Positions 12,212-64,000 of a stretch of 64,000 nucleotides of DNA are shown here, in pieces. The translations under genes were made by a program, and so were the position numbers. The first letter of the stretch is position 1, and each line of letters opens with the position of its first letter. The notes under the pieces were generated by a model. The model worked only from the letters and a program-made list of their open reading frames with translations, made no database searches and had not been told where the DNA came from. Source of the stretch: an uncultured Rubrobacteraceae bacterium. GTDB taxonomy: Bacteria > Actinomycetota > Rubrobacteria > Rubrobacterales > Rubrobacteraceae. Where the stretch lies: contig CAWHLD010000020.1 of NCBI GenBank assembly GCA_963830075.1, forward strand, positions 1 to 64,000, in the 5' to 3' direction.

Positions 12212-12231
12212 GTGACCCCCTGCCTGGGCTC

Positions 12232-20174: not shown

Positions 20175-20213
20175 AGACCGGGAGCGCGCACCGGCACCTA
20201 TCGTTTATATTAG

Positions 20214-24881: not shown

Positions 24882-25037
24882 AGAGACAGTATAGACCGTC
24901 CCCGGAACGTCCCGGGTGCGCATGGGGTGTTATGGGCACGGATGGCATTGGCAGCCGCTAGAGACACAAGGTTAGATAGCGCGAGAACTCTAGCGATCTT
25001 CGACGAGGGAACGCATTTGTTCGGCGCCCCGTTTGTC

Positions 25038-37454: not shown

Positions 37455-38971
37455 CTGGCTCCGACCATGCCTGCCGTGTAGACGTTGACGGCCCGCACGT
37501 AGGCGCGCGCCGCCGCCTCCACGACGTCCTGGGAGAGGCCGCGTCCGGCGTAATCGCCGCCCTCGAACTCGACAGAGACCCTGACCTCGCCGAGGGCATC
37601 CTTGCCGCCCGTAACGGCGTCGATGCGGAAGTCCGTCAGACGGCCCCTGATGTTCGTGGCGGCGTCGATGGCTCGGAAGACCGCATCGACCGGCCCTTCG
37701 CCCTCAGCCTCGGCCTCGAACGTGCCGTGCTCGGCGTGCGAGATCGTCACGGCGGCCCGGCTCTGGCGGCCCGTCGCGGCGACGACGCGGAACGACTCGA
37801 GGACGAACTTGCCCTCGAAGGAGCCAACCTCGTCGGCGGCTATCGCTTCGAGGTCGGCGGCGGTCACGGTCTTCTTGTGGTCGGCTATCTCCTTGAAGCG
37901 CGTGAAGGCCCGCTTGAGAATCTCGCCCTCGACGTAGTAGCCGAGCTCTTCGAGAGCGTCCTTGAGGGCGTGGCGGCCCGAGTGCTTGCCGAGGAAGATG
38001 TTCGTCCCTTCCAGCCCGATATCCTTCGGCGTCATGATCTCGAACGTCCGCCTATCCTTGAGCACACCGTCCTGGTGAATCCCCGACTCGTGCAGAAAGG
38101 CGTTGCGCCCGACGATGGCTTTGTTCGGAGGCACCTCGTAGCCCGTGATGTTCGAGACCATGCGGCTCGTGTTGGCGAGCTGGCGGGTCTCTACGCCGAC
38201 GTCGGCCCCGTAGAAGTCAGAGCGCGTGGCGAGCGCCATCACGACCTCCTCCAGGGAGGCGTTACCGGCCCGCTCCCCGATGCCGTTGACGGCGACCTCT
38301 ACCTGGCTAGCACCGACCTCGACGCCGGCGAGCGAGTTGGCGACGGCCATCCCTAGGTCGTCGTGGCAATGGACCGAGAGGACGCGCTCCTTTAGACCGG
38401 GCACCCGTTCTACGAGCTCCTTCAGGAAGGCCGTGAACTCGACCGGCGTCGTGTAGCCTACGGTGTCGGCGATGTTGATCACGTCGGCCCCCGCCTCTAC
38501 CGCCGCTGCGACTACTTCGGAGAGGTAACCTATGTCCGTGCGTGTCGCGTCCATCGGCGAGAACTCGACGTTCTCGCAGAGGTTCTTGGCGAAGGCGACC
38601 GCCTCGCCAGCCCGTCTCAAAATGTCCTCGCGGTCCGAGCGCATCTGGTGTTCTATGTGAAGATCGGAGGTTCCGACGAAGGTGTGGATGCGCGGCTTAT
38701 CAGACCACTGCACGGCCTCCCAGGCGCGCACGATATCCTGTTCGTGGATGCGGGCGAGGCCGGCGATCCTAGGCCCCTTCACCTCCGAAGCGATGCGGGA
38801 GACGGACTCGAAGTCTCCCTCGGAGGTAATGGGGAAGCCTGCCTCTATCACGTCAACTTTCAGGCGGGCGAGCTGGCGGGCTATCTCCACCTTCTCCTCT
38901 ACCGACAGGGAGATACCGGGCGACTGCTCGCCGTCGCGGAGGGTTGTATCGAAGATCTCTACTCGACGCAT
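37430..38971 (-). CDS. leuA: 2-isopropylmalate synthase
   Basis: [69 protein letters not shown]-terminal regulatory domain. Confidence 0.9.
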
Positions 38972-46655: not shown

Positions 46656-47735
46656 TTGCACGGAAAGAAACCAACAATCCTCGTCACCGGCGGGGCTGGC
46701 TTTATCGGGGGCAACTTCGTCCTCGACGCGGTGGCCTCCGGGGACTCGGTGGTTGTCAACCTTGACGCCCTGACCTACGCGGGGAACCCCGACACGCTCG
46801 CCGGGATGTCTGAGAACCCGGATCATATCTTCGTACACGGAAGAATCGGGGACAGGGAGCTGGTCGACCGCCTGCTCGCCGGGTACCGTCCCTCGGCCGT
46901 CGTCAACTTCGCCGCGGAGACGCACGTCGACCGCTCCATAGACGGTCCGAAAGCCTTCGTTCAGACCAACGTGGTCGAGACACACGAGCTACTCGAGGCC
47001 TCGCTCTCCTACTGGGGGGCACTTGAGGGGGAGGAGCACGATGCTTTCCGCTTTCTGCACGTCTCGACGGATGAGGTGTACGGGACGCTCGGGCCGACGG
47101 GATACTTTACCGAGGAGAGCCCATTCAGGCCGAACTCCCCGTACGCGGCCTCCAAGGCGGCCTCCGACCACCTGGTGCGGGCCTACCATCACACCTACGG
47201 GCTGCCTGTGCTTACCACCAACTGCTCCAACAATTACGGACCCTACCATTTTCCAGAGAAGCTCATACCGCTCATGATCCTGACCGCCTTGCGCGGCGAA
47301 CCCCTGCCGGTCTACGGCGACGGGCAGCAGATCCGGGACTGGCTCTATGTGAAGGAACACTGCAAAGCGATAAGGGTCGTCCTGGAGCGCGGCCGTCCTG
47401 GCGAGACCTACAACGTCGGCGGCCACAACGAGCGGACGAACCTGGAGGTCGTCAGGACGATCTGCGCCCTGCTCGACGAACTGGCACCCGACTCGCCACA
47501 CGCGCCGCACGAGTCGCTCATCACCTTCGTCACGGACAGGCCTGGTCACGACAGGCGCTACGCCATAGATGCGGGGAAGATAGAGATCGAGCTCGGCTGG
47601 GTGCCCGAGGAGACGCTCGAGTCCGGCATGGAGAAAACCGTGCGCTGGTACCTGGAGAACAGGGAGTGGTGCGAGGCCGTGCTCTCGCGGGGCTACAGGG
47701 GAGAGCGGCTGGGTATCCGCGGGGGGGCGGCATGA
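46656..47735 (+). CDS. rmlB: dTDP-glucose 4,6-dehydratase
   Basis: [15 protein letters not shown], ..[15 protein letters not shown].. (YxxxK), 359 aa. Confidence 0.9.
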
Positions 47736-48613
47736 AGGGCATCGTGCTCGCCGGGGGGGCGGGGACTCGGCTGTATCCGCTCACCAGGGCCGTAAGCAAG
47801 CAGCTCCTGCCCGTCTACGACAAACCCATGATCTACTACCCCCTCACTACGTTGATGCTCGCGGGAATCAGGGACATACTCGTAATCTCCACCCCGGAAG
47901 ACCTCTCGCGGTTCGAAGAACTACTCGGCGATGGCTCGCAGTGGGGCGTCAACTTCGACTACGCCGTGCAACCAAGGCCGGAGGGGCTCGCCCAGGCCTT
48001 CGTCATAGGACGGGGGTTCGTAGGCTCGGAGAGCGTCTCGCTTGTCCTCGGGGACAACATCTTCTTCGGGCAAGGCTTCTCGGGTCTCCTGGAGCGCTCG
48101 GCTGGCAGGCAAGAGGGGGCTACCGTCTTCGGGTACTACGTCAGGGACCCCGAGCGCTACGGCGTCGTCGAGTTCGACGCCGACGGCACGGTCCTTAGCA
48201 TCGAGGAGAAGCCCGATAAACCCCGTTCGCACTACGCTGTGACGGGCCTCTACTTCTACGATAACAGGGTCCTCGACGTTGCCGCCGACCTGAAACCTTC
48301 GGCGCGCGGGGAGCTGGAGATAACAGATGTCAACGTGGACTATCTGGGGCGCGGAGAGCTTCAGGTCGAGCTCATGGGACGCGGGATGGCGTGGCTCGAC
48401 GCCGGCACGCACGAGTCGCTGCACCAGTCGGCCAACTTCATCGAGACCATCGAGCAGCGACAAGGCCTCAAGGTAGGCTGCCCCGAGGAGATCTCCTACC
48501 GCAAGGGTTATATAGACGGGGGTCAGCTCGAGCGCCTCGCCCACCCGATGAGGAAGAACGACTACGGTCGGTACCTGTTGGAGCTCCTCGGCAGCGAGGA
48601 GTTCGTTACATGA
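47732..48613 (+). CDS. rmlA: Glucose-1-phosphate thymidylyltransferase
   Basis: [38 protein letters not shown]; ATGA overlap with rmlB. Confidence 0.9.
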
Positions 48614-49170
48614 ACGTCCTAAAGACGGAGCTCCCGGGGGTCCTGATCGTCGAGCCCGACGTCTTCGGCGACGCCCGTGGCTTCTTTATGGAGACCTGGA
48701 ATGGCGTCCGCTACGAGGAGCAAGGCATCGAAGACCACTTCGTGCAGGATAACCTCTCGTTCTCGGCCCACGGCGTGTTACGCGGCCTCCACTTCCAGAA
48801 CCCCAAAGCCCAGGGCAAGCTCGTCTCCGTCTTGCAGGGCGAGGTCTTCGACGTGGCCGTGGACATCCGCGTGGGCTCCCCGACCTTCGGCCGGTGGGCG
48901 GGCGTTACCCTCTCCTCCGAGAACAAGCGCCAGTTCTGGGTGCCGCCAGGCTTCGCCCACGGCTTCGTAGTTACCGGCGAGAACGCGCTCTTCTCCTACA
49001 AATGCACTGAGTACTACGCCCCCGAACACGACGGTTCCATCCTGTGGAACGATCAAGGGATAGGAATAGAGTGGCCCCTCGAAAACCCCTCCCTCTCGGA
49101 CAAAGACCGCGCCGCCCCGCCCCTCGACGCGATGCCCGAAAAGCGGCTGCCGCGCTATGCGGAAGGCTGA
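48610..49170 (+). CDS. rmlC: dTDP-4-dehydrorhamnose 3,5-epimerase
   Basis: [21 protein letters not shown]...RGLHFQ...[18 protein letters not shown]; ATGA overlap with rmlA. Confidence 0.9.
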
Positions 49171-50913: not shown

Positions 50914-51786
50914 TTATCGGTCGGTGCCGTCGCGCTTCTGCCCTGCGTTGGTCCCGAACAGCGAGGTTCCGAGCTTTGCGAGCGCGCGCAGGGTGAGCCC
51001 GGCGAGAACCGCCAGGCTGAAAACGCCCAGTGGTCCGTGCGTGCCGTGCTTACGGTGGTAGAGGAAGGCGCTCTTGTGGAGGAGCCAGACGGCCCTGGGT
51101 TTGCTTCGGCTGCTCGCACCGGTCTGGTGAATTATCTCGATGTGGGGCAGGTAGTAGACGAGCCATCCAGCAGTGCGGGCGCGGCGGCAAAGGTCGGCAT
51201 CCTCGAAATACATGAAGAAGCGCTCGTCGAGAGGTCCAACGTCTCGCAACGTCTCCCTGCGGATGACCATGCAGGCACCGGAGACCCAGTCGACCGGGGA
51301 AGGATGGGACTGGTCGGTGACGGCGGGAAACTGACTCTTTACGAGCGAGCTCTTGGGAAAGAGGCGCGTGAGGAGGGAGGTACGCCCGAGGAACCCCGAG
51401 AGGGCACTGATCTCCCGCCGCGCCGAGAGCTGGAGATGCCCGTCCGAGTCCAGGATCTTTGGTCCCCCGATGCCTGCCTTCTGGCTCTTCTCGAAGAATT
51501 CCTCTAGGCGCTCAAAGAAATGCCCTTCGACGACCGTGTCTGGATTCAAGAGAACGACCAGACCTCCGGTCGATGCGGCGATGCCCCTGTTGTGGGCGCA
51601 GGCGAAACCGAGGTTTTGTTTGTTCCGGATCAGACGCACGGACGACGGAAGCTCGGGCGGCTCGACGCTGTCGTTGTCCACGACAATGGCCTCGAAGTCC
51701 TCGTAGCCGGTCGCATATAGCGACTCGATGCAACGCAAGGTCAGGGGCCAGGAGGCATAATTGACGATAAGGACGGAGAACTTCAT
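50914..51786 (-). CDS. Family-2 glycosyltransferase
   Basis: FSVLIVNYASWP...EAIVVDNDS...(DxD) LLNPDT. Confidence 0.75.
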   Translation of the reverse strand: MKFSVLIVNYASWPLTLRCIESLYATGYEDFEAIVVDNDSVEPPELPSSVRLIRNKQNLGFACAHNRGIAASTGGLVVLLNPDTVVEGHFFERLEEFFEKSQKAGIGGPKILDSDGHLQLSARREISALSGFLGRTSLLTRLFPKSSLVKSQFPAVTDQSHPSPVDWVSGACMVIRRETLRDVGPLDERFFMYFEDADLCRRARTAGWLVYYLPHIEIIHQTGASSRSKPRAVWLLHKSAFLYHRKHGTHGPLGVFSLAVLAGLTLRALAKLGTSLFGTNAGQKRDGTDR

Positions 51787-52787
51787 CGTGCCACGCCCCC
51801 GTCCCTGAGCCGGCGCGCGATGCTCGCCGCCGCCGCGAGCGAGGATTGCCGTAGCAGCCTACGCACCTCGGCGTCCGATACTCGCTTCTGCTTCTGGATG
51901 CCTCCCCGCTTATCCAGCATCAGCGGCAGGTGACGCCACGCCCCCGCGAGCCCCTCCAGGTGCGCCCGAAAAGTGCCTGTCGCCGCCGCGGTTGCGAGAC
52001 GGGCGAGTTGACCGAGGAGGAAGAACGGCAGTATGTGGGGCACCGCGGAGAGGGGCAGGTCCTTGACCAGCATGCTGAGGGAGTTGCGTGTACCCAGCCG
52101 GGTCGCGGTCTCGCTTCGCTTGCCTCCGGTCGAGGCGCTTCCCATGTGGTAGACGACGGCGTCCGGAACGTAGAAGCAGCGATAGCCGGCGAGCTGGGCG
52201 CGGAAGCTCAGGTCCCCGTCCTCGCAATAAGAGACGAAGTCCTCGTCGAAGAGCCCGACCTCGTCGAAGAGTGCTTTCCGGTAAAGCGCCGCGGCGGCGC
52301 AGGCCCCGAAGACGTAGCCAGACGCGTCGAACTGGCCCCTGTCGCGCTCGCCGTGTCCGAGGCGGTAAGGGAGGCCGCTCAGGCGCATGGCGTCTCCCGC
52401 CCCATCTAGCACCCCGCGGTCGTGGAAGTCGACCAGCTTGCTCGCGAAGAAGCCGGACTCGGGGTGATCTTCTGCCGCGCGTACCAGCGCCTCGAGCCAA
52501 CCTCGGTCCTGCTCGGTGTCGTTGTTGAGGAGGACTACGTACTCTGCCTCGGACGCTTCGATGCCGGCGTTCACGGCCGCTGCGAAGCCCCTGTTCTCTC
52601 CCAGGGCAACGGTCTTTGTTCCTGGAAAATTCTCGGCAACGAAATCTAGCGAGCCGTCCTCGGAACCGTTATCCACCAGAACTGTCTCGAAGTCTCTAAA
52701 CGATTGATTTCCCAGGGAGCCCAGGCAGAGATCGAGAAAGCGTTCGCCGTTCCAGTTGGGGATGACGACCGTGACGCGGGCGGGCAC
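51783..52787 (-). CDS. Family-2 glycosyltransferase
   Basis: VTVVIPNWNGERFL...ETVLVDNGSEDGS...YVVLLNNDTE; 4-nt overlap with downstream GT2. Confidence 0.75.
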   Translation of the reverse strand: MPARVTVVIPNWNGERFLDLCLGSLGNQSFRDFETVLVDNGSEDGSLDFVAENFPGTKTVALGENRGFAAAVNAGIEASEAEYVVLLNNDTEQDRGWLEALVRAAEDHPESGFFASKLVDFHDRGVLDGAGDAMRLSGLPYRLGHGERDRGQFDASGYVFGACAAAALYRKALFDEVGLFDEDFVSYCEDGDLSFRAQLAGYRCFYVPDAVVYHMGSASTGGKRSETATRLGTRNSLSMLVKDLPLSAVPHILPFFLLGQLARLATAAATGTFRAHLEGLAGAWRHLPLMLDKRGGIQKQKRVSDAEVRRLLRQSSLAAAASIARRLRDGGVAR

Positions 52788-52792
52788 GGGTT

Positions 52793-54091
52793 TCAGGTAG
52801 CCGGGCCCGATTCTTCGCGAAGCCGGTCGTGGACCTGGACCGTCGTTGGCAGTTGGACCATGCCGCGCACCGGACGTCCTTCCGCGAAGATCTCGAAGGC
52901 CACCGGATTTTCATTGCGTCCCAGGAGGGTGTCACCTTCGCCCGAGATGGTGGCCTCGACGCTATATTGGCCGGAATGGAGCGGTAGACCGAAGCTGAAG
53001 TCCACCGCTACGACCTCGCCCTCCTCCCTCGCTCCGAGCGGAGCGTTCTCCGCCTCGGTCGAGGTCTCGAACAGGAGCGTCCCCGACCTGTCGCGTAGGA
53101 GAACGTTGAACGCGCTCTCATCCACGGCCTGCGCGTAGCGCGCGTGCACGCGGACGGTCAGGTTGCCCCCTGACGGCAATCGATCGGTGGGCTCGTTGGT
53201 CTCGTCGAGTAGTTCTACGTCCAGGACTCCGGCCTCCCCCGTGGCCCGCTGACGCCTCGCCTCGCCGTTTGGGGGGTCTGGCATATCTTCCTCGTCCTCG
53301 TGGGCTATCGTGTCGTCCAGTTGCTGGTCCCGCTCGGCGTTCTTGGTGGCCTTTTTGTTCTGGGCTTTCTCCAGCATGTCGCGGTACTCGCCGACCACCT
53401 CGTCCGGGGTGCCCCTGAGGATCATGTGTCCCCTGTTCAGCAGCACGGCGTCCGTGCAGAACCTGTTGACCATACCCATGCTGTGCGAGACGAACAGGAC
53501 CGTGGTCCCCGAGTCCCGCAGCTCGTACATCCTCTGCAGGGCCTTCTTCTTGAAGGCCGCGTCTCCGGCCGAGAGAGCCTCGTCGATCACCAGGATATCC
53601 GGGTCGACGTTGACCGCGACGGCGAAGCCCAGGCGCGACTTCATCCCGCTCGAGTAGGTCCTCACGGGCCGATCCATAAAGTCCCCGATGTCCGCGAACG
53701 CCTCTATCTCTTCAAACCGATCGAGTATCTCGTGGCGGTCTATGCCCAGGATCAGGCCGTTCATCATGGCGTTCTCGCGGCCCGTGAACTCGGGGTTGAA
53801 GCCCGACCCCAGCCCGAAGATGGCTGTCAGCCGGCCGTTAGTCTCGACCGTGCCCGTCGTAGGCTGCAAGACGCCCGAGATGATCTGCAGCAGCGTGCTC
53901 TTCCCCGCCCCGTTGCGGCCGAGGATGCCTAAAGTGGTGCCCGGCTCGACCTCGAGGTCTATGTCCTGGAGGGCCCAGAAATCCTCGCTGTGCTGCTTCT
54001 TGCCGAAGCTCAGGACCTCCCTCAGGCGCAACGACTTGCTGGAGGAGATCCTGTACTTCTTCCCTATCCCTTTGAGCGATATAGCGTTCAT
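52793..54091 (-). CDS. wzt: ABC transporter ATP-binding protein for polysaccharide export (Wzt/TagH-like), with C-terminal extra domain
   Basis: Walker A GRNGAGKST, signature SSGMKSRLGFA, Walker B ILVIDEAL. True start MNAISLKG overlaps the wzm stop (ATGA). The table ORF's 255-aa N-terminal extension overlaps wzm in another frame and is rejected. Confidence 0.8.
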   Translation of the reverse strand: MNAISLKGIGKKYRISSSKSLRLREVLSFGKKQHSEDFWALQDIDLEVEPGTTLGILGRNGAGKSTLLQIISGVLQPTTGTVETNGRLTAIFGLGSGFNPEFTGRENAMMNGLILGIDRHEILDRFEEIEAFADIGDFMDRPVRTYSSGMKSRLGFAVAVNVDPDILVIDEALSAGDAAFKKKALQRMYELRDSGTTVLFVSHSMGMVNRFCTDAVLLNRGHMILRGTPDEVVGEYRDMLEKAQNKKATKNAERDQQLDDTIAHEDEEDMPDPPNGEARRQRATGEAGVLDVELLDETNEPTDRLPSGGNLTVRVHARYAQAVDESAFNVLLRDRSGTLLFETSTEAENAPLGAREEGEVVAVDFSFGLPLHSGQYSVEATISGEGDTLLGRNENPVAFEIFAEGRPVRGMVQLPTTVQVHDRLREESGPAT

Positions 54092-54936
54092 CACAGGTGA
54101 TCCGCGAACTTGGGCTTGAGCCTGACGAACATCGCAAAGCCGACGATGAAGAGGGCCACGGAGAAGAGCGTAAAGTAGAGGGTCGCAAGCCCGCCCGGCA
54201 TGGTGCCGTAGAGGATCAGGCGCCTGTACGCCTCGACCAGGTACGCAAGCGGGTTGTAGTCCTCGATCCAACGCAGCGACTCGGGCAACCGGTCGGGCGG
54301 CCAGAGGATCGGGGTGACGAAGAACATCCCCCTTATGACTGGTCGCATGACCTCCCCAACGTCGGGCAGGAAGGTGCCAAGCACCGCCATGATGTATGTG
54401 AGCCCGAGGATGAAGATAAGCTGCAGCACCACGATGGCTGGCAGCACGAGTAGCGTCGGGTGCAACGTCCTGCCGAACAGGAGAAGCATGATCAGGAGCG
54501 CCCCGAAGCCGAAGATTTTGTCTACCATCGAGGCTATGGCGTTCGTGAAAGGCAGAATCTCCAGCGGGAACACTATCTTCTGTACGAGACCCGAGTTGCT
54601 CCTGATGCTGTTGAGGCCCTTGTTGAGTGCCTCGGAAAAGGTAAGGAAGGGGAGCAACCCGCAATACAGGAAGAGCCCGAAGTTGAGCGTCGGGTCGCCC
54701 TCTACCCCACGGTTCTTTATCCCGAACGCGTTGGAGAAGATGAGCGAGAGGAAGAACACCCAGATCAGTGGCCCTAATATCGCCCACGCGAAACCCAGAT
54801 AAGACCTTCTGTAAGCTCGGGTTACCTGCCGGTGTATGAAGTACCCGAGCAGCCACCGCCGGTGGTAGAAGGTGCCCAGGGCGTCGAAGAATGCGCCCCC
54901 GAGGCTCCTCTTTTCGCTGGAAGTGTATGTTGCCAA
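54091..54936 (-). CDS. wzm: ABC-2-type polysaccharide export permease (Wzm/TagG-like)
   Basis: 6 TM helices; FFDALGTFYHRRWLLGYFIHRQVTRAYRRSYLGFAWAILGP is the typical ABC-2 N-terminus. Confidence 0.75.
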   Translation of the reverse strand: MATYTSSEKRSLGGAFFDALGTFYHRRWLLGYFIHRQVTRAYRRSYLGFAWAILGPLIWVFFLSLIFSNAFGIKNRGVEGDPTLNFGLFLYCGLLPFLTFSEALNKGLNSIRSNSGLVQKIVFPLEILPFTNAIASMVDKIFGFGALLIMLLLFGRTLHPTLLVLPAIVVLQLIFILGLTYIMAVLGTFLPDVGEVMRPVIRGMFFVTPILWPPDRLPESLRWIEDYNPLAYLVEAYRRLILYGTMPGGLATLYFTLFSVALFIVGFAMFVRLKPKFADHL

Positions 54937-55026: not shown

Positions 55027-55056
55027 GGTAAGGGCGCTTCGCGAAGCGCCTCTACG
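55027..55056. terminator. Palindrome GGTAAGGGCGCTTCG|CGAAGCGCC.. downstream of the protease gene; relative of the 24027 palindrome
   Basis: GGCGCTTCGCGAAGCGCC perfect 9+9. Confidence 0.45.
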
Positions 55057-56299
55057 GCACGGCCCTGGCGGCGTTGATCCTGCCGTGCCCGTAGCGTGGG
55101 TCGTCGCCGTCTGGCCCGAGATCCGTGGCCGTGGACTGTATGCGTTGGCGGATTTGATCCGCCGTCTCGCCCTCGGAGGCGAGCAGCCCGGCGAGGGCTG
55201 ACACGAAGGGGGCAGACTGGCTGGTACCGGTCTCCTCAGGGTAGCCCCCACCCGCGCCTGTGGACAGTATATCCGTTCCCGGCGCCGCCAGGTCCACCCA
55301 ACTACCGCGGCTGGAGAAGCCGGTGAGCCTGTCATTCTCGTTGGTGGCGCTGACGGCGATGACCGCAGGATAGGCCGCGGGATACCGCCGCGCCGTCGTC
55401 CCCTCGTTGCCGGCCGAGGCGACGATCACGACGCCTTTTGCGGAAGCGTCGTTGATCTTCGCCTCGAGGGCGCCGCTATACGGCCCTTCGAGCGAGAGGT
55501 TCAATACGTCGGCCCCCTGATTTACGCTCCAGTTGATGCCGGAGATCAAGTCCGAGTCCGTAGCTTCTCCTCTTGAGTTCATGACCTTGGCCACGAGCAG
55601 CTTGCAGGCCGGGCATCCCCCCGCCACGCCCCTGCCGTTGTCCGTGAGTGCGCCTGCTATGCCGGCCACGTGGGTGCCGTGGCCGTAGCCGTCGTTGGCC
55701 ACGGCACGGCCGTTGACGAAGTCTTTCTGAGCCGAGATCTTGCCTATGTCGGAATGATCCTGGTTTATCCCAGAATCGATGATGGCGATCTTCGCCCCGG
55801 TGCCCCTGGCGTCGTTCCAGGCGTTCGGGAACCCGGCTTTCCTTAGACCCCACTGGCCAGGGTCGCCGAACTTACGGTCGTCCGGTAGGAACGTAGCCTC
55901 GCGGATGTAGTTGTAGTCGGCGGCCTCGACGCGGGGATCTTCCCGAAGGTCCCCGAGCTCGGACTGCAGTTCCTGTTCTCTGGTTTCCCCCGACTGCTCG
56001 CTCATTACGCTAGGGAACGAGATGAGACGCACCTCTCCCGGAAGATCCTTCACAGTTTGCCCCCCCGACTCGCGGACGACGGACTGCCGGGTATCCTCTG
56101 ACGTTCCCGGCTCGTAGACGACCAGGAGTTCTCCTGCGACGTAAGTGGTGCCCTCGGGGTCCGCATCCGAGTTCGGCCGTTCCGGTGTCTCTCCCCGTGC
56201 TCCCGGCGCGAGCGCCAGAAGAAGGGTCGTGAAGAGCAACGCCGCGACGAGGACGGAGACCTGGCGACCATCGTGGCGTGAACCTCTTAAGTGACCCAA
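55052..56299 (-). CDS. Secreted subtilisin-like (S8) serine protease with I9 propeptide
   Basis: Signal peptide; catalytic triad blocks IAIIDSGINQDHSDI, HGTHVAGIAG, GTSQSAPFVSALAGLL. Confidence 0.8.
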   Translation of the reverse strand: MGHLRGSRHDGRQVSVLVAALLFTTLLLALAPGARGETPERPNSDADPEGTTYVAGELLVVYEPGTSEDTRQSVVRESGGQTVKDLPGEVRLISFPSVMSEQSGETREQELQSELGDLREDPRVEAADYNYIREATFLPDDRKFGDPGQWGLRKAGFPNAWNDARGTGAKIAIIDSGINQDHSDIGKISAQKDFVNGRAVANDGYGHGTHVAGIAGALTDNGRGVAGGCPACKLLVAKVMNSRGEATDSDLISGINWSVNQGADVLNLSLEGPYSGALEAKINDASAKGVVIVASAGNEGTTARRYPAAYPAVIAVSATNENDRLTGFSSRGSWVDLAAPGTDILSTGAGGGYPEETGTSQSAPFVSALAGLLASEGETADQIRQRIQSTATDLGPDGDDPRYGHGRINAARAVP

Positions 56300-56305: not shown

Positions 56306-57409
56306 CTACCTCCTTCTGTAGCGGCGGACCAGGCGCCGGTACCTCTCGTAGTTGAAGTGCGGGCCGGGACAACTGTGGGTCGATCCCGGCACCCGAGTGT
56401 GGCCGGTGATGTGATGGCGGTCCACAGGTATACCATGCCGCCTGCTCAGATGGGCCGCGAGCCGCGCCGAGGCGTGGTACATGGCGTCGGACCACGCCCC
56501 GCGGCGGCTCGCGTAGCCCTCGTGCTCTATGCCGATGCTGTGCTTGTTCCACTTCCAGTTGCCGGCGTGCCAGGCGATGTCCGCGTCGCGCACGCACTGG
56601 GCCACCTTGCCGCCCCTGCTCAGGACGTAGTGGGCCGAGACGTTCGCGTGGCGGTTCTTGAACCAGCTTATGGTGCCGGGGTAGGAGCCCTGCGCTATGT
56701 GAACGACGATCCTGTTTATGTTTTGAGATCTTTCGCGGTTGGCGTTGGTGAAGTTGCCCCAGAAGGCCGGTCTCCACTTGGCCTTCTTGTAGTCTGGGGT
56801 AGACGCGGCTGTATAAACTTGTGGCATCTCGACATCCTCCCACGGCGCGAGCTCTAACCGCTCTCCGGTCGAGATGGTCAACGAGGCCCCGCTCTTCAAC
56901 GTTTCGTAGACCTGCACAGCGTAGAGTATGTCGCCCCCGTACTCTGCCACCGCCTTCTGCCAGCCGTCCAGGTTCTTGGGCTTGTCCGCCCCCTGAATGC
57001 CCGCCAGCAGTGCCGTTCCGCCGCGGATATTCGCCGGCCTCGACGTCTTGAGCAGTTGCTCCGAGAGCCCGGTCAGGGAGGCGGCCCGGCCGAGGGTGTC
57101 CGTCCAGGGGTTTTGCACGAGTTGCATGATGCCGTAGGCTCCGCGCCCGCTGAGGTTTCCCGGCTCGTAGTCGCTTGCCGACGGCGGGGGCATCTCCCAG
57201 AGCGTGTTGACGTAGCCTATCGCCAGGAGCAACTCTACGGGAACCTGATACCCCCGCGCGGCTTCCAGGAACTCTTTTCTCAAGGAACCAGTCTGGGCGA
57301 GGACTCCTCCGGCTGTCCCCCCGAGCAACACCGCGCCCGCCAGGCCCGTGCCGCCGATCCTCAGGAAGTCCCGGCGGTCTATCGCCCCGAGTCCACTCTC
57401 AGAACTCAA
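56306..57409 (-). CDS. Tat-secreted peptidoglycan hydrolase: N-terminal SLT-like segment plus C-terminal N-acetylmuramoyl-L-alanine amidase (Amidase_2/PGRP) domain
   Basis: Tat motif RRDFLRIGG; GAYGIMQL; amidase_2 Zn ligands VVHIAQGSY..., AHYVL, AWHAGNWKWNKHSIGIEHEG, ITGHTRVPGSTHSCPG. Confidence 0.7.
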   Translation of the reverse strand: MSSESGLGAIDRRDFLRIGGTGLAGAVLLGGTAGGVLAQTGSLRKEFLEAARGYQVPVELLLAIGYVNTLWEMPPPSASDYEPGNLSGRGAYGIMQLVQNPWTDTLGRAASLTGLSEQLLKTSRPANIRGGTALLAGIQGADKPKNLDGWQKAVAEYGGDILYAVQVYETLKSGASLTISTGERLELAPWEDVEMPQVYTAASTPDYKKAKWRPAFWGNFTNANRERSQNINRIVVHIAQGSYPGTISWFKNRHANVSAHYVLSRGGKVAQCVRDADIAWHAGNWKWNKHSIGIEHEGYASRRGAWSDAMYHASARLAAHLSRRHGIPVDRHHITGHTRVPGSTHSCPGPHFNYERYRRLVRRYRRR

Positions 57410-57642
57410 TGTTGCCCCCTTGTGTTTTCACTTCCTTACGATCTTTACCGTGTCGGTGACCATGCCGCCTGAATGGGGGCTCTTGCCAGAGACCTGCACC
57501 CGGTAAGGATCGCCCGCGTCCAGGCCCGACAGGACAGACAGCGAGGCCAGCGCTCCGTGACGCAAGGTCCCCCCTCCAGGGACGACATCGTATCGAGACG
57601 ATAATCATTATGTGACAAAGCTCGAGAAAAATTAAGGGTTCT

Positions 57643-58749
57643 GTGACACACTTTTCGCAAGTTTTCGTGACGGAGGTTCGAGAATGGCTTTTGGCCGGAG
57701 ATCCAACGCCCTACCCTGGCCCCTTGGTGCGTACAATGCTTGAGGGCCTGAAGGCGCACTTTACCAGGCTCGGACGGGCCGCGCGGAGCGCAGGCAAGAG
57801 AAGCTCGACGCTCACCCGAATCTACAGCAGGCTCATCGGTGAACGCGAGCGGGCCTACCTTGAGTTGGGCCGTTTGAGAACCAGAGTAGCCGGACAGGGC
57901 TCAAGCTCGGTCGATCCGGGGAGGATGGTCTGGATCTTCGGTTCCGGACGGAGCGGAAGCACGTGGTTGCGTAGCATGATGGGAGAGCTAAGCGGCGCTA
58001 GGGTGTGGGAAGAACCGATGGTCGGGAGGCTCTTCGGTGAGTTCTACGCAAGGTCGCCCAAGGACAACTTGCGCTCCGCCGACTTCGTGATGGGAAATCC
58101 GATCAGGAGGGGTTGGATCCACTCTATAAGAAACTTCGTCCTGGACGGGGCCAGGTACTCCAACCCCCGTATCAGCGCTGGGGAGTACCTGGTGATCAAA
58201 GAGCCCAACGGCTCCGTCGGAGCCCCACTTCTGATGGAGGCTTTACCCGAGAGCTGTATGATCCTGCTTGTCCGCGACCCCAGGGATGTGGTCGCCTCCG
58301 TCCTGGACGCCGCGAGAGAGGGGGGCTGGCTGTACGAGAGCAGGGAGGGGAAGACCGGCGCGAGACGCAGCAAGCTGGACAGGAGGCCGAACGCTTTCGT
58401 GAGAGAGCGGGCGAGGGTGTACCGGCGGGGCGTCGAGAGCGCCTGGCGGGCCTACGATGCCCACAACGGACCGAAGGTCCTGGTCCGCTACGAGGATCTC
58501 AGGTCCGATACGTTGGGCGAGATGAAGCGCATCTACGCGGTCCTTGGCGTTCCCGTAGGGGAGGAAGAGCTTGGGCGGGCGGTCGAGAAGCACTCCTGGA
58601 AGAACGTGCCCGAGGCCGAGAAAGGCAAGGGCAAATTCTACCGCAGGGGGACGTCTGGCGGCTGGAGGGAGGACCTGACCCAGAAGCAGGTCGAGGTGGT
58701 AGAAAGGACGACCGCCTCCCTGCTGGAGAGGTTCTACCCCGAACCTTGA
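57643..58749 (+). CDS. P-loop sulfotransferase (PAPS-dependent family)
   Basis: 5'-PSB motif IFGSGRSGSTWL, 3'-PB region LVRDPRDVVASVL, C-terminal FYRRGTSGGWRE; start could also be the internal ATG near 57739. Confidence 0.7.
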   Translation: MTHFSQVFVTEVREWLLAGDPTPYPGPLVRTMLEGLKAHFTRLGRAARSAGKRSSTLTRIYSRLIGERERAYLELGRLRTRVAGQGSSSVDPGRMVWIFGSGRSGSTWLRSMMGELSGARVWEEPMVGRLFGEFYARSPKDNLRSADFVMGNPIRRGWIHSIRNFVLDGARYSNPRISAGEYLVIKEPNGSVGAPLLMEALPESCMILLVRDPRDVVASVLDAAREGGWLYESREGKTGARRSKLDRRPNAFVRERARVYRRGVESAWRAYDAHNGPKVLVRYEDLRSDTLGEMKRIYAVLGVPVGEEELGRAVEKHSWKNVPEAEKGKGKFYRRGTSGGWREDLTQKQVEVVERTTASLLERFYPEP

Positions 58750-59705
58750 ACACGCCCAAGGCATCGGTCGTGATCCTTACCTTCGAGGCCGGTCCTGGCT
58801 TCGAAGAACTGCTAAGGAGGGTTTTCTCTCAGAGCACCCACTTCGACTATGAGGTGCTCGTGATCGACTCCGGCTCGACGGACGGCACCGTCAGGCTCGC
58901 AGAGATCTACGGCGCCTCTGTGCACCGGATAGACCCAGACACGTTCGACCACGGCGCGACGCGCAACCTGGGCGCCTCGCTCTCACGCGGACGCTACATC
59001 GCTTTTCTCGTGCAGGACGCCCTCCCGGTAGACGATGGCTGGCTCGCGGCGATGGTGGATAACCTCGACTCCGGCGCGACGGTCGCCGGGGTGTACGGGC
59101 GGCAGATCCCACGCCCCGAGAGCAGCCCGCTGACCCGCGCCCTGATGCGGGACTGGCCCACCTCCGGCCAGGAACGCCGGGAACAATTCGCCGGTGGGCC
59201 AGATGCTTACGGTGCGCTGTCCCCGGCCACGCGACATTCTCTTTCTATCTTCGACAACGTGAGCTCCTGTGTGCGCCGCTCGGTGTGGGAGCACATCCCC
59301 TTCGAAAAGACGGCCTTCGGGGAAGACATCAGGTGGGGCAACGCCGTCGTCGAGGCGGGCTACGCTCTCACGTACGAGCCGCACTCGACCGTACTCCACT
59401 CGCACGAACGCGGCGCCCTCTACGACCTCAGGCGCCACTACGCGGACGGGCTCGTTCTCCAGGAACTCTTCGGGCTCGTCCCGACGCCGAACCTGGCGCG
59501 GCTGCTTCTGAACGTGATTGTGACCTCAGCGCACCTCTATCTCAGCAGGGACGGCGTGACGATCCTGGCTCCCCGTTTCCTTCCGCGTGCCATGAGATAC
59601 GCCCTCTTCTCACAGGCGGGCACCTACCTCGCGGCCCGTAGAGACAGGAAGCCGGACTCCCCGTTCTCCGTCAGGGCGCACAGGTTCCTCCTCAAGGGCA
59701 TCTAG
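58746..59705 (+). CDS. Family-2 glycosyltransferase (start TTG/GTG uncertain)
   Basis: SVVILTFEAGPGFEELL...EVLVIDSGSTDGT...FLVQDALP. Confidence 0.6.
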   Translation: MNTPKASVVILTFEAGPGFEELLRRVFSQSTHFDYEVLVIDSGSTDGTVRLAEIYGASVHRIDPDTFDHGATRNLGASLSRGRYIAFLVQDALPVDDGWLAAMVDNLDSGATVAGVYGRQIPRPESSPLTRALMRDWPTSGQERREQFAGGPDAYGALSPATRHSLSIFDNVSSCVRRSVWEHIPFEKTAFGEDIRWGNAVVEAGYALTYEPHSTVLHSHERGALYDLRRHYADGLVLQELFGLVPTPNLARLLLNVIVTSAHLYLSRDGVTILAPRFLPRAMRYALFSQAGTYLAARRDRKPDSPFSVRAHRFLLKGI

Positions 59706-59768
59706 AGATTCCGTATAATCCTTCTTCATGCACGCAGGACGCTACGCTAAGTCCCTTGAAACTCGCCG

Positions 59769-61139
59769 GTGAGGGTTCTCTTTACCACCCACCAGTTCTT
59801 CCCCGAGAGCCGTGCGGGCGTAGAGGTCGTTACGCTCGGGCTGGCGCAAGAGCTTAAGGCCCGTGGCCACCAGCCTTTCGTCCTGGCCGCCAAGCGGTCG
59901 GTTCCCCACAGCGACCTCAGGCCTGGGGGGACAGAGGATTACGAGTTCGACGGCATCCCTGTCCGCAGGATCGGACGCCCGGAGGAGGGCCTATCCCGAC
60001 CCTACGATCTCAACTACCGCAACGAGGATATGGCCAAAAAGGTCAGGGAGTACGTGCGGGAGGCGGCTCCCGACGTCGTCCACGCCATGCACCTCCAGGG
60101 ACTCTCGGCGAGCGTACTGCCGGTCTTCGAGGAGTTCGGGCTGCCCGTGGTCTTCACGGCCGCCGACTTCTGGCCGGTATGCCCGGTCGTGGACCTGAGA
60201 AGGCACGACGGCGCTATGTGCCGGGGACCAGATGTCGCCCACTGCGTCAGGTGCATCGCAAGCAGGAGCGCCGACCCCCGCGTCGTAAAGGCGTCCCGTC
60301 TCGTGCCAGGCACCGTCGCCGGGGCTGCCGGTCTGGTCTCCCGCACTGCCCTCTCGCGCCTCTCCTTCCCGCTGCGCCAGGTGGAGGCCGTGGGGGAGCG
60401 TCCCGGCTACATACGGGACCGTATGCAGAGCGTGGACCGCATCCTCGCCTACACGCACCTCACGCGGGACCTTCTCGTCGCCAACGGTATAGGAGGAGGA
60501 AAGATACAGGTCTCCCCCTACGGCATAGACGCCTCCCGCGTCGCCGAAGCCAGCTCGGAACGGCGCCCGTCCCTGACACTCCGGTTCGGGTTCGTGGGTA
60601 CCCTGGCGCCCCACAAGGGCCCCGACGTGCTCGTCCGGGCCTTCATGATGCTCCCGCCTGAAGTAGAGGCGACGCTCGCAGTCTACGGGAGCGAGAGGAG
60701 TTATGAGTCCTACGCCGCCGGTCTGCGCACCCTCGCAGAGGAGGACACGAGGATCTCCTTCCGCGGGCCTTTCTCGCGGGACGAGATCGGGGGTGTCATG
60801 GCGGATCTCGACGTCCTCGTGGTCCCTTCACGCTGGTACGAGAACGCCCCTGGTGTGATCTTCGAGGCCTTCGCCGCCGGGATGCCGGTGATCGCCACCG
60901 ACCTCGGGGGCATGTCCGAGTTCGTGAGGCCGGGAAAGAACGGCCTGCTCTTCACCCTCGACGACGCGGAGGACCTCGCCGGAAAGCTGGGCCGACTGGC
61001 CGGCGAGGAGCGTCTACTCGAGCGCCTGCGCGCGGGCATTGAACCGGTCAAGACCACAGGAGAGTACGCGGGCGAGCTGATAGACCTCTATGGTACGCTC
61101 CTGGAAGGCAAGAGGGATCGATGGACAGGCCGTGGATGA
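59769..61139 (+). CDS. Family-4 (GT-B) glycosyltransferase
   Basis: MRVLFTTHQFFPESRAGVEVVTLGLAQEL...; C-terminus EGFGLV-type ..NAPGVIFEAFAAGMPVIATDLGGMSEFVRPGKNGLLF. Confidence 0.75.
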   Translation: MRVLFTTHQFFPESRAGVEVVTLGLAQELKARGHQPFVLAAKRSVPHSDLRPGGTEDYEFDGIPVRRIGRPEEGLSRPYDLNYRNEDMAKKVREYVREAAPDVVHAMHLQGLSASVLPVFEEFGLPVVFTAADFWPVCPVVDLRRHDGAMCRGPDVAHCVRCIASRSADPRVVKASRLVPGTVAGAAGLVSRTALSRLSFPLRQVEAVGERPGYIRDRMQSVDRILAYTHLTRDLLVANGIGGGKIQVSPYGIDASRVAEASSERRPSLTLRFGFVGTLAPHKGPDVLVRAFMMLPPEVEATLAVYGSERSYESYAAGLRTLAEEDTRISFRGPFSRDEIGGVMADLDVLVVPSRWYENAPGVIFEAFAAGMPVIATDLGGMSEFVRPGKNGLLFTLDDAEDLAGKLGRLAGEERLLERLRAGIEPVKTTGEYAGELIDLYGTLLEGKRDRWTGRG

Positions 61140-61200
61140 GGTTTTGCGTGCAACTTGATAACCGAAAGAACTCAGGCCTTCACCCCTGCGGGAGGCTATC

Positions 61201-62049
61201 GTGAGGGTCTTGCTGACCGGCGCGGGAGGACAGCTTGGCCTAGAGCTAGCCGCGATGCTCCCCGGGCGGGGCCACGAGGTCGTCGCCCTCGACCGGGGCG
61301 GGCTCGACATAGCCGACGCCGGGGCCGTGGAGCGTGCACTTGGTGAGCACGAGCCCCGGATCGTCGTAAACGCCGCCGCCTACACCAACGTCGATGGTTG
61401 CGAGGAGGAGACGGACCTAGCGTACGCCGTAAACGCCCTCGGGCCGCGCAATTTGGCCCAGGCCTGTGGGCGGCATGATTGCGAGCTCCTGCACGTGAGC
61501 ACCAACTACGTCTTCGACGGTGAGGGCGAAAGACCCTACGAGCCCTTCGACCCCCCAACCCCGATCAGCGCCTACGGTCGCACCAAGCTCGCCGGGGAGG
61601 AGTACGTGATGCGGCTCATGAACCGCTGGTACGTGGTGCGCTCGGCCGGCGTCTACGGAGGGGGACACAACTTCGTGCGCACCATGCTGCGCGTGGCAGC
61701 AAAGCGCGACTCGCTCAAGGTCAAGGACGACGAGTTCATTTCGCCGACCTACGCCCGTGACCTGGCCGAAGGCATCGCCGGGACGATCGAGGGTGGTCGC
61801 TATGGTCTCTACCATCTGACCAACGCCGGGTCCTGCTCCTGGTACGAGTTCACCCGTGAGATCTTCCGCCTCGCCGGTGTCGAGACCGAGGTCATCCCTA
61901 TCCCCGGGTCGGAGTACCCCCTGCCGGCACAGCGCCCGGCCAACGGGGTTCTGTCGTCTCTCGGAAGCCCAGAGCTCCGTCATTGGAGCGAAGCGCTCGC
62001 CGACTACCTCGCCCAGGAGTCCCACGATGACGCGCGGGTGAGGCCCTGA
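61201..62049 (+). CDS. rmlD: dTDP-4-dehydrorhamnose reductase
   Basis: MRVLLTGAGGQLG...VVNAAAYTNVDGCE...YGRTKLAGE (YxxxK), 282 aa. Confidence 0.85.
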   Translation: MRVLLTGAGGQLGLELAAMLPGRGHEVVALDRGGLDIADAGAVERALGEHEPRIVVNAAAYTNVDGCEEETDLAYAVNALGPRNLAQACGRHDCELLHVSTNYVFDGEGERPYEPFDPPTPISAYGRTKLAGEEYVMRLMNRWYVVRSAGVYGGGHNFVRTMLRVAAKRDSLKVKDDEFISPTYARDLAEGIAGTIEGGRYGLYHLTNAGSCSWYEFTREIFRLAGVETEVIPIPGSEYPLPAQRPANGVLSSLGSPELRHWSEALADYLAQESHDDARVRP

Positions 62050-62075
62050 CACCGCCCGGCCGCAGGCCCATCGAG

Positions 62076-63131
62076 ATGCTCCGAAGGGCAAAGGCAACCC
62101 TGGACGACGCGACCGGCGCCCTCAGGTCGAAGGCCAGCAAGCAGGCCCGCAGGCAGCTCGCTCTCAAGGACGCGGAGATCTCCGCGCTCAGGAGGGAGCT
62201 GGCGCGTTTGCGCCCGGAGGGGCATGGCACGGACACGGGACGCGTGCCCGTGTTCTTCGTCGTCGGAAACCAGAAATCTGGCACCACGTGGCTAATGCGG
62301 ATGCTCGACGCGCACCCCGAGATACTCTGCAGGGGCGAAGGACGCTTCTTCGGGGCGAGCTGGAGGCAGAAGAGCCTGATCCAGAAAGACACGCGGAGGC
62401 CGCCAAGCTCGCTGTACAACGCCGTCCTGGACGCCGAGTACCTGAAGCTCTGGGTAGAGCGGTCCGTCTGGAGCAGGAACGACAGCGCGGCCGAGCACCT
62501 CGACAACCTCACCCGCATGGCTATCGACTACTTCCTAGAAGGTGAACTCCTGAAGAGCGGGAAGCGGGCCGTAGGGGACAAGTCGCCACTACTCACCCCC
62601 GAAACGATACACGAGATCTCCACCATCTACCCCGAGGCGAAGGTGATCCACATACTCAGGGACGGCAGAGACGTGGCCGTCTCAGCGGCGTACCACACCC
62701 GCAACTTCGGCAGGTCCAACAAGAGAAGCGAGGCAAATGGAGGCATGTTCCTGGAGGAACAACTCGAAAAACTCGCGGCGGAATGGGCCTCAAGGGTGGG
62801 CAAGACCGTAGCGGACGGCCCCGAGCTGCTCGGAGAGAACTACACCGAGGTTCGCTACGAGGACCTGCTGCAAAGCCCCGAGAAAGAGGTCCAGCGGCTT
62901 ACACGGTTCATCGGGGTTGACCCTGGCGAAGAGGCCGCGAGGCGGTGTGTTGACGCCGCCAGCTTCGAGAGGCTCTCGAAGGGTAGACAGAGGGGCGAAG
63001 AAGACCAGTCCTCGTTCTTCAGGAAGGGCGTGGCGGGCGACTGGAAGAATGTCTTCACCCAGCAAGACAGTGAGGTCTTCGACGAGGAGGCGGGCGAACT
63101 GCTCTCCAGGCTCGGCTACGAAACAGGCTAG
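62076..63131 (+). CDS. P-loop sulfotransferase (second copy, distinct sequence)
   Basis: 5'-PSB VVGNQKSGTTWLMRML, 3'-PB ILRDGRDVAVSAAYH, C-terminal FFRKGVAGDWKNVFT. Confidence 0.7.
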   Translation: MLRRAKATLDDATGALRSKASKQARRQLALKDAEISALRRELARLRPEGHGTDTGRVPVFFVVGNQKSGTTWLMRMLDAHPEILCRGEGRFFGASWRQKSLIQKDTRRPPSSLYNAVLDAEYLKLWVERSVWSRNDSAAEHLDNLTRMAIDYFLEGELLKSGKRAVGDKSPLLTPETIHEISTIYPEAKVIHILRDGRDVAVSAAYHTRNFGRSNKRSEANGGMFLEEQLEKLAAEWASRVGKTVADGPELLGENYTEVRYEDLLQSPEKEVQRLTRFIGVDPGEEAARRCVDAASFERLSKGRQRGEEDQSSFFRKGVAGDWKNVFTQQDSEVFDEEAGELLSRLGYETG

Positions 63132-63138
63132 TCCTCCG

Positions 63139-64000
63139 TCAACGCTCAATGGATGGGTAGAGCCTGCGTAGCTTCTTTCGGGCATCTGCTGTGGTAAAGC
63201 GCCAATTGACGCTCGCCGCCTTCCGGTTGCGCGCCTCACACCAGGCTCGCGCCTCCCTTCTCAACGTCTGCGCGTCCGGCACACGTCGCTTGCCCAGACA
63301 CTGCCTCACCAACACTGAGATCTCTATCTCGGCCATGTTCAACCACGAACCGTGCACCGGCGTGTAGCGGAACTCTATCCTCCTGCTGAGTCGGCGCGCG
63401 CGCTCGGCATCGAAGACCTCGTAGAAGGAGGCCGCGCTGTGGATGTTTAGGTTGTCCACCACCAAGCGTATCTTCTCGGCGCGCGGGTAGAGATCCTCGG
63501 CCAGGTGGCGCACGAACTCGGCGAACTCGCGTCCGCGCCGACGCTCGCGCACCTCCACACCTCGCCAGCCCGTGAGGGGTTCGAAGGCCACGAACAGGTG
63601 GGCCATGCCCCGCCTCTTGTACTCGTGGTCGCGGCGCTCAGGGACCCCCGCTCCGACGGACAACGCCTCGCGAACCTCGGCGAGGAGCTGGCAGGGGCGC
63701 TCGTCGAAGCAGACCACCGGGCGCTTCGGGTCGTAGGGTTCCTCGTAGAGGTCCAATACCTCCTCCATCCTCCAGACGAAGCGGCCGCTGTGTTTGGACG
63801 GGATCACCCAGCCCTTGACCAGGTGGGGCCGCAGTTCGTTTTTTTGAGCGTCTTACGGACCGTCTCGTGGGAGACCTCATCCACGATGCCCATCTCCACC
63901 GCCTTCTGTGCCAACAGTCTGAGGCTCCAGCGCTCCCTCCCTTCCGGAGCCTGTGAGCAGGCCAAAGCGATCAGGTGCGCCTCGGCCCTCCCGTCGAAGG
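63139..64000 (-). mobile_element. IS630-family (Tc1/mariner superfamily) insertion sequence, partial at the window edge. It has a complete DDE ORF B and a partial HTH ORF A joined through an A7 slippery site (63839-63845).
   Basis: ORF B: ..VCFDERPCQ..LVVDNLNIHS..YTPVHGSWLNMAEIEISVL... ORF A tail ..LRLLAQKAVEMGIVDEVSHETVRKTLKKNELRPHLVKGW reads through into ORF B only after a -1 shift at CTCAAAAAAAC. Confidence 0.8.

Follow-up and report, generated by a model that had tools for sequence, protein, structure and literature searches.

Genomic organization of the sulfotransferase operon

We analysed a window of 64,000 nucleotides (nt), positions 1 to 64,000 of contig CAWHLD010000020.1 (assembly GCA_963830075.1), from an uncultured soil bacterium of the Rubrobacteraceae. 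The focus was on two genes for 3'-phosphoadenosine 5'-phosphosulfate (PAPS)-type sulfotransferases, ST1 and ST2, which are located in a glycan locus at the end of the window. As a preliminary description of this DNA had reported, both open reading frames (ORFs) were present; they form the ends of a set of five co-directional plus-strand ORFs at 57643-63131, in the order ST1–GT2–GT4–rmlD–ST2. ST1 (57643-58749) encodes 368 amino acids (aa) if read from a GTG codon, and ST2 (62076-63131) encodes 351 aa. The three genes between them encode a family 2 glycosyltransferase (GT2; 58746-59705; Pfam Glycos_transf_2, E = 2.9e-17), a family 4 glycosyltransferase of the GT-B fold (GT4; 59769-61139; Pfam Glyco_trans_1_4, Glycos_transf_1 and Glyco_transf_4), and the dTDP-4-dehydrorhamnose reductase RmlD (61201-62049; TIGR01214, 301.8 bits, cutoff 224; Pfam RmlD_sub_bind, E = 1.2e-92). 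The GT2 gene either overlaps the ST1 stop codon at its start or begins no more than about 20 nt away, and the gap from rmlD to the start of ST2 is 26 nt. No terminator-like site was found on the plus strand between ST1 and ST2; the scan of 57300-63400 was otherwise uninformative, with 0 promoters and with 2 terminator-like sites on the minus strand, below the counts from shuffled sequence.

The operon is divergent from a minus-strand group encoding a glycan exporter and two further glycosyltransferases. Wzm, the ABC-2 permease of the exporter (54091-54936; Pfam ABC2_membrane), matched galactan Wzm and KpsM weakly in NCBIfam. Wzt (52793-54094) consists of an ABC ATPase (ABC_tran), similar to TagH and mycobacterial galactan Wzt in NCBIfam, and a C-terminal carbohydrate-binding domain, Wzt_C (E = 5.4e-20, 72 bits, cutoff 30). 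Downstream of wzt are two GT2 genes (50914-51786 and 51783-52787; Glycos_transf_2 and Glyco_tranf_2_3), with sub-threshold matches to the TIGR01556 rhamnosyltransferase subfamily. On the plus strand, rmlB (46656-47735; Pfam GDP_Man_Dehyd/Epimerase), rmlA (about 47735-48613; Pfam NTP_transferase) and rmlC (about 48620-49170; Pfam dTDP_sugar_isom) complete the dTDP-L-rhamnose pathway together with rmlD, so that RmlA, RmlB, RmlC and RmlD are all encoded in the window. With Wzm/Wzt, four glycosyltransferases and rmlABCD around them, the two sulfotransferase genes do lie inside a glycan locus, as had been described.

Sequence motifs and relationship of ST1 and ST2

Both proteins matched the Pfam families Sulfotransfer_1 and Sulfotransfer_3 far above the cutoffs (22 and 27 bits, respectively), and the sulfotransferase identity first read from motifs was confirmed in this way. 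ST1 scored 66 bits (E = 4.4e-18) and 64.7 bits (E = 1.9e-17), and ST2 scored 108.3 bits (E = 5.8e-31) and 108.5 bits (E = 7.5e-31). No NCBIfam family was matched by ST1. NoeE (NF052394) scored 41.7 bits on ST2 against a cutoff of 500, which places ST2 outside the NoeE equivalog.

The two PAPS-binding motifs named in the preliminary description were found in both proteins and aligned with the solved structures of SULT2B1b and SULT1A. The 5'-phosphosulfate-binding (5'-PSB) P-loop reads GSGRSGSTW in ST1 and GNQKSGTTW in ST2, and the 3'-phosphate-binding (3'-PB) motif reads RDPRDVVAS in ST1 and RDGRDVAVS in ST2, aligned with RNPRDVVVS of SULT2B1b. ST1 and ST2 also share a third PAPS motif, absent from the preliminary description, towards their C-terminal ends (ST1, FYRRGTSGGWRED; ST2, FFRKGVAGDWKNV), and corresponding segments of the two solved structures align with all three motifs. 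This third, nucleotide-binding motif has the form RKGxxGxWK and is YRRGTSGGWRED in ST1 and FRKGVAGDWKNV in ST2, with which FLRKGVCGDWKNHFT and FMRKGMAGDWKTTFT of solved SULTs align. In the ST1 and ST2 orthologue groups alike, the P-loop (G..SG.TWL), the 3'-PB motif (R-D-x-R-D...S) and a Glu about 20 residues past the P-loop were invariant.

ST1 and ST2 had been described as unrelated. However, BLASTP found 27% identity between them (E = 1e-15) in an alignment of about 330 residues. Both fall into the same Pfam families, and when 46 orthologues were aligned jointly, 29 columns were invariant across both groups. Judged by these alignments, ST1 and ST2 are old paralogues of one family.

An N-terminal extension of roughly 90 aa ahead of the P-loop had been assigned to ST1. 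The extension is real, but that length rests on the upstream GTG. Since conservation among the 12 homologues compared opens at Met32 (MLEGLK...) and most called homologues are 328-340 aa long, the true start is likely the ATG at nt 57736, giving a protein of 337 aa with about 65 aa ahead of the P-loop. Nor is the extension special to ST1: that of ST2, about 57 aa long, is likewise basic and helical, and the first 65 residues of each protein contain 14 Lys and Arg residues.

The ratio of nonsynonymous to synonymous substitutions (dN/dS; Nei-Gojobori, 11 orthologues) was 0.13-0.29 for ST1 and 0.17-0.25 for ST2, compared with 0.12-0.24 for rmlD and 0.20-0.41 for the GT2 and GT4 genes of the operon. 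By this estimate the sulfotransferases are under purifying selection and are constrained at least as strongly as the other operon genes.

Structural models and predicted location

The AlphaFold2 models of ST1 and ST2 had mean predicted local distance difference test (pLDDT) scores of 72.5 and 74.4, respectively, with confident cores; the N-terminal extensions were each modelled, at low confidence, as two long helices. When the models were searched against the Protein Data Bank (PDB) with Foldseek, ST1 matched TPST1 and TPST2 at the top, followed by cytosolic SULTs and mycobacterial Stf9 and Stf1, and ST2 matched TPST2 and TPST1 at the top. The TPST matches had E values of 1e-8 to 1e-9, template modelling (TM) scores of 0.5-0.6 and 16-22% identity. 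All 50 PDB matches listed for each model were sulfotransferases or the sulfotransferase-fold retinol dehydratase. As modelled, the fold establishes the sulfotransferase class of ST1 and ST2, not their acceptor.

ST1 and ST2 align with TPST1 and TPST2 (PDB 3ap1, 5wrj and 9wwe) in the P-loop region, at the Glu about 20 residues further on and in the K-x-P segment. The alignment of ST2 with TPST2 runs from the P-loop through two segments: the conserved Glu of ST2 (CRGEGR) is aligned with the second Glu of CGEETR, and GDKSP of ST2 is aligned with CNKDP. The catalytic base is a His in cytosolic SULTs and a Glu in TPST and heparan-sulfate enzymes, and we take the conserved Glu of ST2 to correspond to E99, presumably the catalytic base of TPST2. 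TPST1 and TPST2 differ from the two proteins in being Golgi membrane proteins that act on peptides. The C-terminal half of ST1 and ST2 is closer to cytosolic SULTs than to TPSTs, and their C-terminal RKGxxGDWK motif likewise resembles that of the cytosolic SULTs and not the TPSTs.

Neither a clear transmembrane segment nor a signal peptide was seen in ST1 or ST2, and both are therefore most likely cytoplasmic. A transmembrane anchor in the extensions was considered and rejected; the peak 19-residue hydropathy was 1.6 and was sited within the core domain.

Related loci

Thirty related loci were compared, 24 obtained by a scan of species-representative genomes and 6 by contig look-ups. The 24 loci from the scan (56-80% identity) came from metagenome-assembled genomes (MAGs) labelled Rubrobacter, Rubrobacteraceae, Rubrobacterales or Actinomycetota, with no cultured species among them. 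All loci of the 30 that carry an organism name are MAGs of these groups. ST1 and ST2 also had hundreds of close metagenome homologues, the named ones belonging to Rubrobacter sp. or Rubrobacteraceae MAGs. The order ST1–GT2–GT4–rmlD–ST2 was kept in nearly every sufficiently long locus of the 30, at 56-85% identity. In the relatives the operon is divergent from amidase genes and Wzm–Wzt–GT2–GT2, and in most of them the amidase genes are located between wzm and ST1. These amidases may be a link between autolysin and wall polymer. In relatives (L001, 3747-5270), one of the amidases carries a Golvesin_C domain.

Most relatives extend the locus 3' of ST2 with a sulfotransferase-like gene, a small ORF, a methyltransferase gene, two GT4 genes and three to four tandem sulfotransferase genes. 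This block was found in L001 (11618-20547), L002, L008, L017, L019 and L028-L030. Its first gene encodes a sub-threshold sulfotransferase-like protein with the P-loop GFHRSGTS. The tandem sulfotransferases (the ST3-6 group) share 48-73% identity with one another and about 25% with ST2, are barely alignable with ST1, and are without an N-terminal extension. NCBIfam contained no family for ST3, ST4, ST6 or hypA. In total, most relatives carry five to seven sulfotransferase-type genes per locus.

One relative, L027, shares the chromosomal frame of the window (thrB–thrC–rmlBAC–GT2–GT2–Wzt–Wzm–S8) and has a remodelled operon (10001-21745) with six sulfotransferase genes, one of which encodes a 588-aa double-sulfotransferase fusion. 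This remodelling suggests serotype-like hypervariability of the locus. A type-I sulfatase gene adjoins the sulfotransferase genes of L027 (19193-20629, minus strand); its product has a signal-like N-terminus and the formylglycine motif C-x-P-x-R (CCPSR). L002 also has a sulfatase gene beside the locus (20721-21062).

Some relatives showed individual peculiarities. At about 13300-16400 on the minus strand of L018, two sulfotransferase P-loops (FFVVGHGRSGTTW) lie within a single open frame of about 1270 aa, with a third copy adjoining; the frame may encode several fused sulfotransferases or result from an assembly artefact. A small MazE-antitoxin-like ORF lies between the operon GT2 and GT4 genes in L028 and L029 (7445-7702), and a GSDH-PKD protein is inserted past ST2 in L028-L030.

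Other genes in the window

Between wzm and ST1, the minus strand encodes an S8 peptidase (55052-56299; Pfam Peptidase_S8) and an Amidase_2 peptidoglycan hydrolase with a twin-arginine translocation (Tat) signal (56306-57409; Pfam Amidase_2), and both may have a part in the glycan system. A FUSC-like membrane protein is encoded on the plus strand upstream of ST1, along with rmlBAC.

Directly past ST2, an IS630-family insertion sequence (Pfam DDE_3) occupies 63132-64000 on the minus strand and reaches the window end; it marks the limit of the visible locus. As BLASTN of the window tail showed, homology to related loci ends precisely at the ST2 stop codon, and the element may be polar on downstream locus genes. 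Its transposase is split over two frames at an A7 run near 63810-63830 (LKKTNC... for LKKNELRPHLVKGW...), which reflects either programmed slippage or a 1-nt deletion.

Further upstream, Pfam scans of the window found thr, ilv and leu genes, with none related to glycans. The ilv-leu block contains two LeuA/HMGL-type paralogues (33772-35355 and 37430-38971, minus strand), probably an isopropylmalate synthase and a citramalate synthase. A PGA_cap (CapA-like capsule synthesis) protein is encoded at 21449-23155, with three metallophosphoesterase genes around it (20214-21575, 23190-24005 and 28604-29101). An S-adenosylmethionine (SAM) hydroxide adenosyltransferase of the DUF62/fluorinase-chlorinase-related family (SAM_HAT_N and SAM_HAT_C) is encoded at 24066-24923 on the minus strand.

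Discussion

On this evidence, ST1 and ST2 probably sulfate, in the cytoplasm, a rhamnose-containing, ABC-exported envelope glycan made by their own locus. RmlA-D would make dTDP-L-rhamnose, and the GT2 and GT4 enzymes of the locus would assemble the whole chain on a lipid carrier at the cytoplasmic face of the membrane. ST1 and ST2, as PAPS-dependent O-sulfotransferases, would sulfate the chain on that face, where PAPS is available. Wzm/Wzt would then export the sulfated chain, and Wzt_C probably reads a feature of the chain end, which could be a sulfate, a methyl group from the methyltransferase of the relatives or another modification. The polymer would finish in the Gram-positive envelope of the Rubrobacteraceae bacterium. 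Four elements of this scheme are predictions: the identity of the acceptor, where the enzymes act, their reliance on PAPS in vivo and the arrival of the glycan at the cell surface. Sulfation ahead of export would be mechanistically coherent because the proteins look cytoplasmic, PAPS is cytoplasmic and the chain is finished before export. ST1 and ST2 most likely act on different acceptor positions or sugars, since they are old paralogues that each persist as their own orthologue group.

That the sulfotransferases decorate the glycan made by the locus is a prediction well supported by genomic context, and the addition of sulfotransferase paralogues, in some cases also of a sulfatase, in the relatives supports it further. 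The sulfated polysaccharide proposed in the preliminary description is thus favoured by the gene neighbourhood; it remains a prediction, with no PAPS gene in the scanned regions. Calling the polymer rhamnan-type went too far: rmlABCD and the weak rhamnosyltransferase similarity of the GT2 pair point to a rhamnose-containing polymer.

Several points weigh against sulfation of such a glycan. No PAPS-synthesis gene was found by Pfam among about 50 window ORFs, and a regular-expression search in six frames of the window and of L001-L026 for motifs of APS (adenosine 5'-phosphosulfate) kinase, ATP sulfurylase, CysD and CysQ gave only one off-frame chance match. The scanned window genes also included no priming phosphoglycosyl transferase and no LCP-type or O-oligosaccharyltransferase (O-OTase) ligase; in such systems the priming transferase and ligase are often encoded elsewhere in the genome, and they may be so here. 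No NCBIfam equivalog was matched by ST1 or ST2, and the solved structures nearest to them are of enzymes that sulfate protein tyrosine or small molecules and not carbohydrates. The named relatives that carry the locus are uncultured MAGs. The searched literature contained nothing on the chemistry of any Rubrobacter glycan and nothing specific on Rubrobacter together with sulfotransferase, sulfated polysaccharide, cysC or assimilatory sulfate reduction; the sole item was a sulfotransferase homologue of R. radiotolerans screened for phenol sulfation, which is unrelated. Finally, the O-antigen ABC cluster of Aeromonas salmonicida has a sulfotransferase-domain ORF beside wzt and makes a polymer without detected sulfate (PMC4483657), and genomic context alone can therefore mislead.

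The genes of the locus can be compared with several known systems. The export genes resemble those of E. coli O8/O9a, where Wzm/Wzt with a Wzt carbohydrate-binding domain operates together with the terminator WbdD and methyl or phosphomethyl caps. Both systems have an ABC-2 permease, an ATPase with Wzt_C and full cytoplasmic assembly before export, whereas the host of the window is Gram-positive. Sulfotransferases are not known from O8/O9a-type systems. NoeE, which sulfates fucose, a 6-deoxyhexose, is the only named bacterial family matched by ST2, far under its cutoff.

Among the closest known systems is the capsule of Cobetia marina KMM 1449, an ABC-exported rhamnose/mannose polymer with structurally proven Rha-2-sulfate, whose cluster holds rml, sulfotransferase and PAPS genes together (PMC11766843). 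Like the polymer predicted here, the Cobetia capsule contains rhamnose, with rml genes (rmlBDAC) in the cluster; in both cases the genes for sulfotransferases adjoin those for rhamnose and for glycosyltransferases, an ABC transporter is the exporter, and cytoplasmic assembly follows a common logic. The two differ in that Cobetia is a Gram-negative gammaproteobacterium and the window is from a Gram-positive member of the Rubrobacteraceae. The Cobetia exporter is a group-III KpsMT/KpsED system with a 3-deoxy-D-manno-oct-2-ulosonic acid (Kdo)-lipid primer, whereas the window encodes Wzm/Wzt with Wzt_C, and the Cobetia cluster includes cysNC, cysD and cysQ, whereas the window is without PAPS genes. 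The structure and sulfate position are chemically proven in Cobetia, while the system in the window is known from genes alone. A sulfated Vibrio capsule has also been published with its gene cluster (PMC11641403).

Two other clusters share the pairing of sulfotransferases. The xss cluster of Synechocystis PCC 6803 encodes two sulfotransferases from distinct subfamilies, and sulfate was shown experimentally in its product, synechan (PMC8205485). As in the window, two sulfotransferase genes and many glycosyltransferase genes form one polysaccharide cluster, and the xss product has rhamnose as well as sulfate. However, the xss system is Wzx/Wzy-type, plasmid-borne and cyanobacterial, whereas the locus described here is ABC-dependent and has up to seven sulfotransferase-type genes in relatives. 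In Actinoplanes missouriensis, a 2026 paper predicts a sulfated exopolysaccharide from the wps-1 cluster with two sulfotransferases (PMC13390465). It too is from the Actinomycetota, places two sulfotransferase genes in a polysaccharide cluster, with a methyltransferase gene in addition, and its sulfation is likewise predicted. It differs in being Wzx/Wzy-dependent, tied to the sporangium matrix and from another actinobacterial class, and its sulfotransferases belong to Gal/GlcNAc and heparan-sulfate-type InterPro families, unlike ST1 and ST2. In view of Cobetia, Vibrio, synechan and Actinoplanes, the short list of known cases in the preliminary description, and its expectation of a likely undescribed polymer, were too narrow.

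Alternative acceptors were also considered. One is a glycolipid or small glycoside, for instance a sulfated lipid of the envelope, rhamnolipid-like or trehalose-type and comparable to the mycobacterial sulfolipids; part of its pathway would be located beside Wzm/Wzt by chance. The presence of Stf9, Stf1 and small-molecule SULTs among the structural matches is consistent with this, as are the weak match of ST2 to its only named bacterial relative, a Nod-factor fucose sulfotransferase, and the separation of the divergently transcribed Wzm/Wzt from ST1 by hydrolase genes. We nevertheless regard it as unlikely, with an operon that contains no lipid or acyl-transfer genes and with glycosyltransferase, rml, Wzm/Wzt and sulfotransferase genes that travel together in all relatives. 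The serotype-like variation in sulfotransferase and glycosyltransferase content is also typical of surface polysaccharide loci.

A second alternative keeps the exported glycan and limits sulfate to the non-reducing chain end, where about one sulfate per chain would be a terminating cap read by Wzt_C. E. coli O8/O9a chains end in methyl or phosphate caps, and in ABC-dependent O-antigen systems the Wzt_C-type domain binds such terminal modifications. The Wzt_C domain of the locus, the helical N-terminal extensions of ST1 and ST2 and the methyltransferase encoded in the locus of the relatives would all fit a cap, and a sub-stoichiometric cap would suit A. salmonicida, with no sulfate in its repeat unit (PMC4483657). 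However, the five to seven conserved sulfotransferase-type orthologue groups per relative locus go far beyond the needs of a cap, the methyltransferase could make one just as well, and nothing connects Wzt_C with sulfate; sulfation restricted to the chain end is in our view quite improbable.

It is very unlikely that ST1 and ST2 sulfate tyrosine in proteins or peptides, as TPST/RaxST-type enzymes with an envelope protein or a secreted protein as substrate. Human TPST1 and TPST2 were the top Foldseek matches for both models, and ST2 could be aligned with TPST2 through CGEETR and CNKDP, but the TM scores and identities of these matches were low and the C-terminal half fitted cytosolic SULTs better. 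The operon partners are glycosyltransferases and RmlD, the operon encodes neither a candidate peptide substrate nor dedicated secretion functions, and several paralogues per locus would suit glycan diversity better. Hardly credible is a last alternative, in which ST1 and ST2 are non-functional or PAPS-independent relics, for lack of an APS kinase or through disabling of the locus by the IS630 element; PAPS genes were indeed not seen in the window or in L001-L026 and the element lies directly past ST2, but both ORFs are intact, the PAPS-contact motifs are invariant in dozens of orthologues, dN/dS of the sulfotransferases is about 0.2, and the element is outside the coding sequences.

Sulfation of an exported, rhamnose-containing glycan could be carried further. 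In soil and desert Rubrobacteraceae, the product might be a heavily and variably sulfated wall polysaccharide, with 2-7 sulfotransferases per locus and serotype-like variation, that functionally replaces wall teichoic acid without phosphate and forms a water-retaining shell, adding to the desiccation tolerance of these bacteria. Wzt_C and the neighbouring autolysins would read the polymer in its sulfated or methylated form. This extension is tentative, and we would sooner expect it to fail than to hold. If true, this would be the first case of a Gram-positive bacterium with a sulfated cell-wall glycopolymer.

The locus predicts a sulfated glycan, and glycans of this kind have already been described in marine bacteria and cyanobacteria. 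What is new here is the lineage, an uncultured Gram-positive member of the Rubrobacteraceae, the export by Wzm/Wzt with Wzt_C, and the number and variability of the sulfotransferases in relatives. Recent papers describe bacterial sulfated polysaccharides as essentially confined to cyanobacteria (PMC8205485, PMC13390465), but the marine gammaproteobacterial structures show that they are more widespread. Overall, the result is a well-supported genomic prediction and not a new principle. ST1, ST2 and the tandem ST3-6 are predicted to be uncharacterised glycan sulfotransferases, of interest for enzymology and for the engineering of sulfated polysaccharides. If the prediction is true, the sulfation trait would extend to a deep actinobacterial lineage prominent in dry soils, and the locus would supply a candidate for an anionic wall polymer and hydration layer in these bacteria.

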